Source: a virus. From it: 33,512 nt of DNA. Positions 1-21,265 of the stretch are shown here, one piece after another (the stretch's first letter is position 1; the number at the start of each line of letters is the position of its first letter). The notes under the pieces were generated by a model. The model saw only the letters and a list, made by a program, of their open reading frames with translations. It did no database searches and was not told where the DNA came from. Position numbers and translations under genes: made by a program. The stretch lies in the IMG/VR virus record IMGVR_UViG_3300021509_000009; one strand, given 5' to 3'.

Positions 1-1676
1 GGGTCTTTTTTAGAAGGGTCTCCCGCATCTATACAAGGACTTGTTTCGTTATCATTGACCCATGCCGAACCATTCCATCTGCCATATTGGGATTTCAGGT
101 GGAAATCGCCATAATCGGGGTCTGCAAACAATGGGTCTTCAGAGATATCACCTGTGCCTGCTGATGTTCCATTGTAATTCCCGAGAGAATTATTGTATAC
201 ATCATTATATGAGAGATTTATACTTATTCCACCAATATAGTTAATTCCATATTCTTTATTGCCAGCTATTATGTTATTTTTTATGTTATACACATACACA
301 GGCGTACCAGCCGACGCTGTATTTCTAAGAAGACCGTCGCATGTAATTCCATCCTTTCCATTTCCGTAGATGACATTGTTTATTATATTTGCAGTTCTCA
401 TAACACTATTTTCTGTTCTATCTACCTCTGTTATTATTCCACTCCCCATATTATTATATATTAAATTGTTAGTAACATTGTTTATATTCATTGATGGGTC
501 ACCAAACGCCCAAGTATCATATATACGAATGCCATCGCGTTCACAGTCATGAATAATATTGCCCTTAACAACACTGCCATAAGTCCACATCCATATACCA
601 TAACCATTGTAGACATGTCTAATTATGTTATTTGTAATTGTATTGCGAGGGGAGATACCATAAGGTTGCAGTGCCCATCCCGTAACGTGTTCAATGACAT
701 TGTTGGTAAAAATATTATCGGAACCAGCATTAAATTTTATAACTACACCCGTTCCTCCGTCACGGAATACATTATGTCTGATTGTAGCACGCTCAATATG
801 GCAATCCATAAACACTTTGACATGTTCCACGGTACAATATTGTATTAAATTACTCATAGCATAACCATATTGAAATGCCATATAAACATTGTCTATCAGC
901 AAATCTGAGTATTTTGTATAGGCATCTTCTTTTTCTGGTCTACATCCCCATATCGCAAGATTCGAAGAATAATCCCCTCCCTCACAAGAGAAGCCATGAA
1001 GATACATATCTTCTACTGCTACATAATCGCTAGTTGTTGAAACCCTAATAAGTGAGTTGTTCAATATCTCGGTGGCATGAAGAATGGTTTTATCTTTTCC
1101 TTGACCTCTCAATGTTGTATTGCTTCTATTTATTTGTATAGGGGTGTCAGCATTTGAAAGATTCCATGTCCCTTCTTTTAATTCAACAACTCCCCCTTCT
1201 ACAGGAAGAGAATCTAACGCTGCCTGAATGTCTTCCCCAAGATTTACAGCTATAAGTTCAGATGTGGTAATAGTCCAAACTTTATGGTCTTGCTTGTAGG
1301 GACCTATTGGTGGTTTGTAGTTAGATACTTCTACCTCTATATCCCATGTAGATGTTTTATTTGGAACTTGCCATATGAAAGAACTTGTCTTTGTGTTGTT
1401 TTCTTCATGCGTTTGAAGAACTTCTGCTCCACGCATAACCTCCCAGGTGAAGTTGCAGGTTTCATTTGCCGTTACAGTGAAAGTGATGCTATCTTCTGGC
1501 TGAACCTTGTATACGAGGTCTTGTGGATTATCTTTATTTGTTGGGTTTCCTCCAGTAGAAGACCAATTGGTGATGGATGGTGCAGCGGCACTCACACTCA
1601 CCACCCCAGTCAGTCCTGTAATAAAGATGATACCTATCACGAAACATGCAATAGCAACAAAATTATTTCTTAACAT
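1..1676 (-). CDS. Secreted right-handed parallel beta-helix (pectin-lyase-like/NosD, disaggregatase-related) protein, 3'-partial (>558 aa)
   Basis: Hand translation from ATG at 1676 is open to base 1. It starts with a signal peptide (MLRNNFVAIACFVIGIIFITGLTGVVSVSA-A). It has PbH1-like repeats (GIWMWTYGSVVKGNIIHDCERDGIRIYD) and the C-terminal motif GDISEDPLFADPDYGDFHLKSQYGRWNG..WVND..TSPCIDAGDP typical of Methanosarcinales beta-helix proteins. It is absent from the ORF track because it has no stop in the window. Confidence 0.85.
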   Translation of the reverse strand, partial: MLRNNFVAIACFVIGIIFITGLTGVVSVSAAAPSITNWSSTGGNPTNKDNPQDLVYKVQPEDSITFTVTANETCNFTWEVMRGAEVLQTHEENNTKTSSFIWQVPNKTSTWDIEVEVSNYKPPIGPYKQDHKVWTITTSELIAVNLGEDIQAALDSLPVEGGVVELKEGTWNLSNADTPIQINRSNTTLRGQGKDKTILHATEILNNSLIRVSTTSDYVAVEDMYLHGFSCEGGDYSSNLAIWGCRPEKEDAYTKYSDLLIDNVYMAFQYGYAMSNLIQYCTVEHVKVFMDCHIERATIRHNVFRDGGTGVVIKFNAGSDNIFTNNVIEHVTGWALQPYGISPRNTITNNIIRHVYNGYGIWMWTYGSVVKGNIIHDCERDGIRIYDTWAFGDPSMNINNVTNNLIYNNMGSGIITEVDRTENSVMRTANIINNVIYGNGKDGITCDGLLRNTASAGTPVYVYNIKNNIIAGNKEYGINYIGGISINLSYNDVYNNSLGNYNGTSAGTGDISEDPLFADPDYGDFHLKSQYGRWNGSAWVNDNETSPCIDAGDPSKKD

Positions 1677-16466: not shown

Positions 16467-16489
16467 ATTTTTATTCCTCCTATTAAGGA

Positions 16490-16617
16490 TGGACGGAGCA
16501 GGAGTCGAACCTGCATTCCCGAACAGATTTATCTCTCTACTCGTCGAAACAAATGTAATATACCGATTTAATTTAAAATGTCTTAGTGTTCGGGTCCTAC
16601 CATTAGATGATCCGTCC
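16490..16617 (-). tRNA. tRNA-like gene with a 63-nt segment in place of the 7-nt anticodon loop; identity undetermined; CCA not encoded
   Basis: Perfect acceptor stem GGACGGA/TCCGTCC plus A73. D arm ATCT-AATGGTA-GGAC. Anticodon stem CGAAC/GTTCG. 5-nt variable region. T arm GCAGG-TTCGACT-CCTGC. Confidence 0.8.
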
Positions 16618-16645
16618 ATAAACAAAGAAAAAAAATATAATAATT

Positions 16646-20757: not shown

Positions 20758-21265
20758 TAGAGTTAGATATTGATACTCCTTTATATATATTATATATTAT
20801 ATATTTATTATATAATATACCGATTCCTTTACCATACCTATACCATACATGTTAGATATCCTATACCATATATGATTCCTATACCTATACCTTTACTATA
20901 CCTTTATGATTCTTATACCATATATTATCATGATACCTTTATGATACCTTTACTATACCGATACCTCTAAGATTCATATACCATATACCTTTATGATATC
21001 TTTATGATACCTTTATCTTTAAATATCTATTACCATATACATTACCGATTCCTTTACCTTTAAGATTCCTTTATGTATACTTTTTAATATTTATATACTT
21101 TATACCATGTTGATTCTTATACCATATACTTATCCTTTATCTTTATGATTCTTTTACCTTTTATAATATTTATACCTTATAGAGTTAAGATATTCTTATA
21201 CCTTATACCTATAGATCCTTTATATAATATATATTATAATATATTATATATTATATTATATATAA
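20758..21265. repeat. Origin-like non-coding region: degenerate CTTTATGATAC(C)/ATACC repeats between two pure-AT tracts
   Basis: 11-mer units near 20895, 20930-20950, 20990-21015 and 21140. A/T-only tracts at 20781-20818 and 21219-21265. G-poor plus strand that switches to purine-rich after 21265. Confidence 0.55.

Follow-up and report, generated by a model that had tools for sequence, protein, structure and literature searches.

A family of tRNA-shaped viral RNAs, most likely tRNA mimics, with a modular insert in place of the anticodon loop

What does a virus do with a gene that has the body of a tRNA but 63 nt where an anticodon loop of 7 nt is expected? The gene lies on the minus strand of a 33,512-nt stretch of viral DNA (IMG/VR virus record IMGVR_UViG_3300021509_000009), referred to here as the window. 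The window is a virus-like element whose genes include those for YopX, a ClpP-type protease, and an ERCC4/XPF nuclease, together with genes for PrimPol-like and RecA-like proteins and a disaggregatase-type beta-helix protein. Searches with the XPF and beta-helix proteins revealed no cellular relatives, and no integrase was found in the gene annotation of the window. A Ro60 protein encoded by a related virus (locus L088, described below) was 75 to 84% identical to proteins of Methanophagales (ANME-1), Candidatus Methanoxibalbensis, and Candidatus Syntrophoarchaeum; this similarity to ANME-1-type genomes agrees with methane-oxidising archaea as the probable hosts. Because bulge-helix-bulge introns are expected in an archaeal host, a missing bulge-helix-bulge is informative. 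The beta-helix/disaggregatase-related protein at the window edge (positions 3-1676, minus strand) resembles, by impression rather than direct comparison, the "nosD-like" beta-helix proteins of viruses in alkane-oxidising sediment communities (PMC13452462).

The tRNA-like body and its relatives

An earlier note on this DNA, made without database searches, had described a near-perfect tRNA body with an A10-C25 mismatch in the D stem and a 63-nt loop, and a second reading of the sequence agreed (Table 1). The acceptor stem has 7 bp and is followed by U8 C9. The D stem has 4 bp, counting the A10.C25 mismatch, and its 7-nt loop carries G18 G19. The anticodon stem has 5 bp and may be extended by a C26-G44 pair. 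The variable region has 5 nt, the T arm consists of 5 bp and a 7-nt loop, and the discriminator base is A. CCA is not encoded.

Table 1. Features of the tRNA-like gene, its insert types, and its neighbours. Positions refer to the window unless preceded by a locus name.
Feature	Position or length	Strand	Basis or remark
HNH-like gene, 167 aa	16646..17149	minus	Upstream neighbour; HNH-like motif read from sequence
AT-rich TATA-like tract, from HNH-like stop codon to tRNA-like gene	16630..16645	minus	
Whole tRNA-like gene, 128 nt	16490..16617	minus	Sequence, ARAGORN intron mode, covariance model R1
5' half: acceptor 5' strand, U8 C9, D arm, C26, anticodon stem 5' strand	16588..16617	minus	Alignment A1
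63-nt insert, type B, in place of the anticodon loop	16525..16587	minus	Begins A-CUA-AGA, finishes AAAUCU
U-run/AU-rich tract UUUUA-n-UUA	16568..16579	minus	In all four insert types; seen in listing and A1
8-9 bp hairpin, 3' part of window insert	16527..16554	minus	Centroid fold and RNAalifold, three type B sequences; weakly supported
3' half: anticodon stem 3' strand, 5-nt variable region, T arm, acceptor 3' strand, discriminator A	16490..16524	minus	
Trailer hairpin, UCCUU paired with the next gene's Shine-Dalgarno GGAGG	16475..16489	minus	Folds
First downstream gene, 112 aa	16128..16466	minus	
Insert type A	39-40 nt		
Insert type B	59-63 nt		Window and two relatives
Insert type C	74-78 nt		
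Insert type D	79-85 nt		
Viral Ro60 homologue	L088:5298-6827	minus	Pfam vWA_Ro60 and TROVE, DVSGSM metal site
Candidate archaeal Y RNAs	L088:6850-7134	minus	Just upstream of Ro60
Candidate archaeal Y RNAs	L091:2250-2480; L092:2148-2480; L093:2301-2490	plus	Just upstream of Ro60

Standard detectors passed over the gene. ARAGORN with default settings called no tRNA in the window, and Rfam gave no match there at the gathering threshold. Under a permissive threshold, the Rfam tRNA model scored the window at only 13.7 bits, a low value because of the insert; with the same model, the short-insert relative L022 reached 42.2 bits and L088 reached 30.4 bits (gathering score, 29). When introns were allowed, ARAGORN reported a tRNA-Leu(AAG) with the loop CUAAGAC and a 54-nt intron. 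This is the shifted register, CT-AAG-AC, of the earlier note; it is a non-standard stem register, in which either the anticodon stem has 6 bp or two bases separate it from the D stem. A covariance model built in this analysis (R1) scored the window at 106.8 bits and detected one copy of the element per genome, with no second copies that would form a punctuation system.

Relatives were collected with a metagenome scan whose 22-nt query was taken from the variable region and T arm. The scan returned 77 loci, of which 52 (51 loci and the window) belong to the family and represent 43 distinct sequences (alignment A1). When the 5' half later served as the query, L088 was recovered as well; it differs at one T-loop position, lies outside A1, and brings the total to 44 distinct homologues. 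With the XPF gene as the query, three related IMG/VR contigs were retrieved, and two of the three carry the same tRNA-like gene.

All 44 distinct homologues keep the cloverleaf. In A1, the cloverleaf positions were paired in 99.6% of cells, versus 22 to 53% when the partners were slid. Changes on both sides were observed at six pairs: four in the acceptor stem (3-70, 4-69, 5-68, and 7-66), one in the D stem (13-22), and one in the anticodon stem (29-41). U8, A14, A15 with U48, G18, G19, U54 U55 C56, and A58 were invariant or nearly so. The body contacts that give a tRNA its L shape are thus kept (U8-A14, A15-U48, G18 G19 with U55 C56, and A58). Invariance of the T arm is in part an ascertainment artefact and carries little information, because this arm was part of the search pattern. 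Judged by these substitution patterns, the element is a tRNA-shaped RNA under purifying selection and not a pseudogene.

Splicing and decoding

The earlier note had found at best 2 of 4 central pairs of a bulge-helix-bulge, and our scan of the window returned the same value in both registers. For the family, we enumerated all single excisions in three stem registers of the 43 sequences, requiring that the stem have 5 bp and that the loop have 7 nt, with U33 and a purine as residue 37. The window alone passed, with CUAAGAC and 2 of 4 central bulge-helix-bulge pairs. No excision gave a U33...R37 loop in the other 42 sequences, because nearly all members have U-C-Y immediately ahead of the 3' stem. 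A complete bulge-helix-bulge was absent from every insert type in all registers and at all positions scanned. Sites that restored a loop reached at best 2 to 3 of 4 central pairs, with the outer helices missing, and the single 4/4 case found with U33 as the only criterion (type A) forms only if the anticodon stem is opened. On this basis, bulge-helix-bulge introns, whether canonical or not, were rejected (all cut pairs in three registers, 43 sequences).

The would-be anticodon is equally unsteady. Loop positions 2 to 4 are occupied by 10 different triplets, mostly related by transitions, in a body that is almost fixed. In intron mode, ARAGORN made a call for 41 of 55 scanned sequences, distributed over 12 isotypes and 14 anticodons; the isotypes assigned to orthologues include Ile, Met, Phe, Thr, Asn, Pyl, Ala, Gly, Lys, Ser, and Leu, and the intron positions vary from 30 to 39. 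The 14 sequences without a call were 11 family members and 3 XPF-gene loci that do not have the element. The non-canonical or nested intron proposed in the earlier note therefore found no support, since excision leaves 42 of 43 sequences without a usable loop and the triplets that might serve as anticodons are free to drift. Rfam gave no match to a group I intron or self-cleaving ribozyme (E values up to 10 for the window region and up to 1 for five relatives), and the insert is far shorter than group I introns.

Several other identities were considered and rejected. A suppressor or pyrrolysine tRNA (CUA, UUA, or UCA at loop positions 2 to 4) would have A or C at position 33; moreover, the triplet drifts by transitions, and the open reading frames are intact under table 11. 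For a tmRNA-like tag, G3.U70 is not conserved (A3-U70 in 27 of 43 sequences), and there is no consistent frame. The Rfam permuted-tmRNA match in the window reached only 12.9 bits. In L088, an ARAGORN "tmRNA" (L088:5138-5518) is an artefact in which the T arm and acceptor end of the element are joined to the 3' end of the Ro60 coding sequence. A box C/D guide or kink-turn in the insert showed partial box matches in the wrong geometry (read by eye), and a slipped acceptor register serving as a riboswitch is not conserved in type B. Collaborative homing, with the adjacent HNH nuclease cutting and the insert conferring immunity, was also considered, and no uninterrupted allele was found.

Taken from the sequences, these results indicate that the RNA does not decode and is most likely a tRNA mimic rather than a working tRNA.

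The insert, the gene setting, and a Ro60 neighbour

The family, with its modular inserts, the hairpin at the next gene's Shine-Dalgarno sequence, and the link to Ro60 described in this section go beyond the earlier note. An insert of about 40 to 85 nt is present in all homologues, and a normal loop is present in none. Four types were distinguished by length (Table 1), and they share a common frame: a 5' A-YYR-WUC, the U-run, and a 3' end AUYCY. From this frame, the types appear to derive from a single ancestral insert that gained and lost modules. One insert (L038:550-695, minus strand) is a chimera with a D-type 5' part and a C-type 3' part; such a sequence implies recombination within the insert, by which viruses that circulate together have exchanged modules.

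In types C and D, a distal hairpin (GCCUCY/RGAGGU) is flanked on both sides by GGAA. Double changes occur at two of its pairs (U-A to C-G and C-G to U-A), and because these pairs change on both sides, we consider the hairpin real. The covarying hairpin and the exchange of modules mark the insert as functional rather than junk, as far as comparative evidence can tell. The outer helix of type C contains mismatches and shows no compensatory changes. Types A and B, the latter including the window, lack a covarying distal hairpin, and therefore no insert structure is universal. The hairpin predicted in the window insert is weakly supported because only three type B sequences are available. The distance from the U-run to the 3' half would fit an internal promoter or terminator only in types A and B. 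WUC occurs near both ends of the insert, and the ends resemble each other as short direct repeats. Within the window, no complementary targets of the insert were found; the only match was a 13-nt stretch of the insert (AATCGGTATATTA, positions 16555-16567) that recurs in the same sense at about 20813-20825, at the edge of an origin-like region of GGTAT repeats (iterons). This recurrence is marginal and may be due to chance in AT-rich DNA (about 0.05 expected, by a rough estimate).

The element stands first in an early gene block, within a conserved viral gene order. An HNH-like gene, whose product has no Pfam match, lies upstream wherever upstream flanking sequence is present, although in L088 a Ro60 cassette intervenes. 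The gap between the HNH-like gene and the tRNA-like gene measures 28 to 60 nt and contains a T-run and TATA-like motifs (32 loci). About 25 to 33 nt upstream, a conserved CCATAAAGG is common to types A, C, and D, and the window has TTATTATAT; on sequence grounds, it is plausible that this TATA-like motif is a promoter. No defence or counter-defence genes were recognised near the tRNA-like gene.

On the downstream side, an anti-Shine-Dalgarno hairpin (UCCUU or UCCUC paired with GGAGG) starts 1 nt past the discriminator and forms in 50 of 52 loci. When 23 trailer variants were folded, the variation proved to be pair preserving, including one double change from C-G to U-A. Between the tRNA-like gene and the downstream gene there is no terminator and no room for a promoter. 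The first downstream gene varies among the loci, with four successive small genes variously deleted. In the window (positions 16128-15000) and in L012, L017, L032, L037, L047, and others, up to four or five small genes occur in varying combinations. Their products start with MKVRRFE, MKEGKLIKE, MKRIVNGKLY, and MWYEDLKN, and a nearly identical ribosome-binding site and start precede each gene. The variation looks like deletion by recombination between similar gene starts. A portable leader placed before different genes was rejected as an explanation, since deletions among four small genes with similar starts account for the pattern.

Locus L088, on a 55-kb contig (IMGVR_UViG_3300021513_000057), provides a further clue. 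Its cassette, situated between the HNH-like gene and the element, encodes a second tRNA-like RNA, two long-stem RNAs, and a 509-aa Ro60 homologue, which is on the same strand as the element and has its stop codon 20 nt upstream of it. The second tRNA-like RNA, the long-stem RNAs, and Ro60 are also found in three ANME-1 genome contigs. This second RNA carries an extra arm of about 48 nt between the D arm and the anticodon arm. Its acceptor stem is identical across loci and its "anticodon" reads GUU, GUC, or UGU or is a 6-nt loop; with such variation, it does not decode either. The extra arm is tipped by a small covarying hairpin (YYUYU/AGAGG) followed by UG, which resembles the distal hairpin of types C and D (read by eye, without statistics). 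One or two long-stem RNAs, with ends that pair GGAGG...CCUCC, follow the second tRNA-like RNA, and in two host loci the long-stem RNAs contain a T-arm-like hairpin.

Ro60 adjoins the element in 1 of 53 loci, namely, L088, and is absent beside the window and the other 51 family loci in the available flanks. The long-stem Y-like motifs of the ANME-1 Ro60 loci are likewise absent from the window and the other family loci. These absences, together with the lack of the distal hairpin in types A and B, speak against a firm connection with Ro60. A viral scan with the Ro60 protein for further Ro60-linked copies recovered only L088, and a viral scan with a Y-like 16-mer recovered unrelated phages only. 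By analogy, the Ro60 neighbour in L088 and the tRNA-like RNA of ANME-1 suggest that the element may have a Y-RNA-like role. A bolder version would make the element a virus-made, circularly permuted counterpart of a Y RNA, with ANME-1 archaea possessing a Ro60-Y RNA system, the non-decoding tRNA-like RNA with the extra arm among its RNAs, and the virus contributing a tRNA mimic of its own, plus a Ro60 in one lineage, so as to capture or redirect their RNA surveillance. We regard this version as doubtful. If true, it would be the first archaeal Ro60/Y RNA system on record, as well as the first case of a virus taking one over; to our knowledge, no archaeal Y RNA has been described.

Competing explanations and known systems

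The reading that we favour, with middling confidence, is a non-decoding tRNA mimic that is released by RNase P and tRNase Z and acts in trans through its enlarged anticodon arm. Transcription would be driven by the element's own promoter at the head of an early operon. Host tRNA enzymes would recognise the RNA, with RNase P trimming the 5' side and tRNase Z cutting after the discriminator. The tRNase Z cut would free a stable tRNA-shaped RNA, to which CCA could be added, and the same cut would make the 5' end of the downstream mRNA at the base of the hairpin that covers the ribosome-binding site. The freed RNA may then serve as a protein-binding platform in trans via the enlarged arm, as bacterial Y RNAs do, possibly with Ro60. 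The suggestion in the earlier note that the element is a processing signal for the downstream mRNA thus keeps its place within the favoured reading, and it is also viable by itself.

Against the favoured reading stands the point that a purely cis-acting processing signal could do without a trans role. As a pure cis-acting "t-element," the RNA would have its tRNA shape only for the RNase P and tRNase Z cuts, the excised RNA would be roleless, and the insert would be filler. The position of the element 1 nt before the anti-Shine-Dalgarno/Shine-Dalgarno hairpin, with no terminator between them, fits this proposal, as does the wide variation of the insert in length and sequence, and there are precedents in archaeal and plant mitochondrial t-elements (PMC4326828, PMC1920247). 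However, the compensatory changes in the C/D insert hairpin speak against filler, and a single element per genome is not a general punctuation system. Retention of the D arm and all tertiary-contact bases is a further objection, since RNase P and tRNase Z probably require less to recognise a substrate. We therefore consider a cis role alone unlikely. The decoy for tRNA-targeting host factors that the earlier note had raised survives as an improbable alternative. Here the long single-stranded "anticodon" region would be bait for anticodon nucleases, PIN/HEPN toxins, or tRNA-binding sensors. Four insert types and a chimera co-circulating in the same sample series around a fixed body would fit an arms race, and each type starts with a 7-nt single-stranded A-YYR-WUC beside the anticodon stem. 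Yet the variable triplet changes mostly by transitions, as drift predicts, no defence or counter-defence gene lies among the recognised neighbours, and no host nuclease is known.

Lower still in our estimation stands a real tRNA with an odd anticodon loop and unusual removal of the insert, whether by a relaxed splicing endonuclease, as two introns, or by a virus-specific enzyme. ARAGORN does offer formal intron solutions in 41 of 55 sequences, among them the window's CUAAGAC; the insert ends are alike, with WUC near both; and in a sister virus and in ANME-1 genomes, a further tRNA-like gene carries 48 inserted nucleotides at a non-canonical site. Against these points, no insert type holds a complete bulge-helix-bulge, every solution besides that of the window puts a pyrimidine at position 37, and the anticodon and intron position differ among orthologues with the same body. 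Nor is there a group I intron or ribozyme match, and the class I body is unlike Leu identity. A role at the level of DNA, as an attachment site, a relic of integration into a tRNA gene, or a decaying pseudogene, is very improbable. Archaeal mobile elements often integrate into tRNA genes, and short direct repeats at the insert ends and the variable content of the adjoining genes might be read in this sense. The attachment-site relic of the earlier note is nevertheless not supported, given the compensatory changes, which reflect selection on RNA structure, and the failure of either half to match any cellular genome among 185,579 species genomes. In addition, the window has no integrase, and in all loci the element sits inside conserved viral gene order rather than at a junction.

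Mimics of tRNA are already known as t-elements, YrlA RNAs, viral tRNA-like structures, and herpesvirus tRNA-like RNAs. Our literature search found no report of a tRNA mimic from an archaeal virus and none of a mimic whose anticodon loop is replaced by exchangeable modules. The murid gammaherpesvirus 68 TMER (tRNA-miRNA) transcripts and mascRNA are tRNA-shaped RNAs of viral origin or from long transcripts that are processed by tRNA enzymes and do not decode. They are eukaryotic, and their extra hairpins lie downstream of the tRNA-like part rather than within the anticodon loop. Archaeal bulge-helix-bulge tRNA genes share with the element an archaeal setting (here, a virus of ANME-1), an insert in the anticodon loop, and a typical intron size; they differ from it in that the element has no bulge-helix-bulge, yields no U33...R37 loop on excision, and does not conserve an anticodon.

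Among t-elements, that of the Haloferax volcanii 5S rRNA is cut by RNase P and tRNase Z (PMC4326828), and those of plant mitochondria are tRNA-like processing signals (PMC1920247). Like them, the viral element would be a non-decoding tRNA-shaped fold within a longer transcript, in which the expected RNase P and tRNase Z cuts define the end of a neighbour. Its acceptor/T stack of 7 plus 5 bp adjoins the hairpin at the next gene's Shine-Dalgarno sequence, as would be expected of a t-element. Unlike t-elements, it keeps the whole cloverleaf with the D arm and tertiary contacts, and a modular arm of about 40 to 85 nt with a covarying hairpin replaces the anticodon loop in a virus-encoded, single-copy gene. 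The YrlA RNAs of bacteria and phages mimic tRNA, adjoin Ro60, and have their Ro60-binding stem at the place of the anticodon arm (PMC4201824). The element likewise mimics tRNA without decoding; it has acceptor, D, and T arms and an extended helix at the place of the anticodon arm. Its topology is permuted: YrlA ends in the extended stem and its acceptor is closed by a loop, whereas the element has an open acceptor and a closed extended arm. It lacks the bacterial GNCGAA motif (sequences read by eye), and its ends form the acceptor stem.

Since tRNA detectors miss the element or mislabel it (12 isotypes), other archaeal viromes probably contain genes of this kind that have gone unnoticed. Should the Ro60 lead hold, it would make Ro60 and Y RNAs a subject for research in archaea, from which we found none described. 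The family suggests that viruses of archaea use tRNA mimicry as a strategy and offers a natural example of the "tRNA scaffold" design used in biotechnology, in which an RNA is grafted into the anticodon stem of a tRNA.
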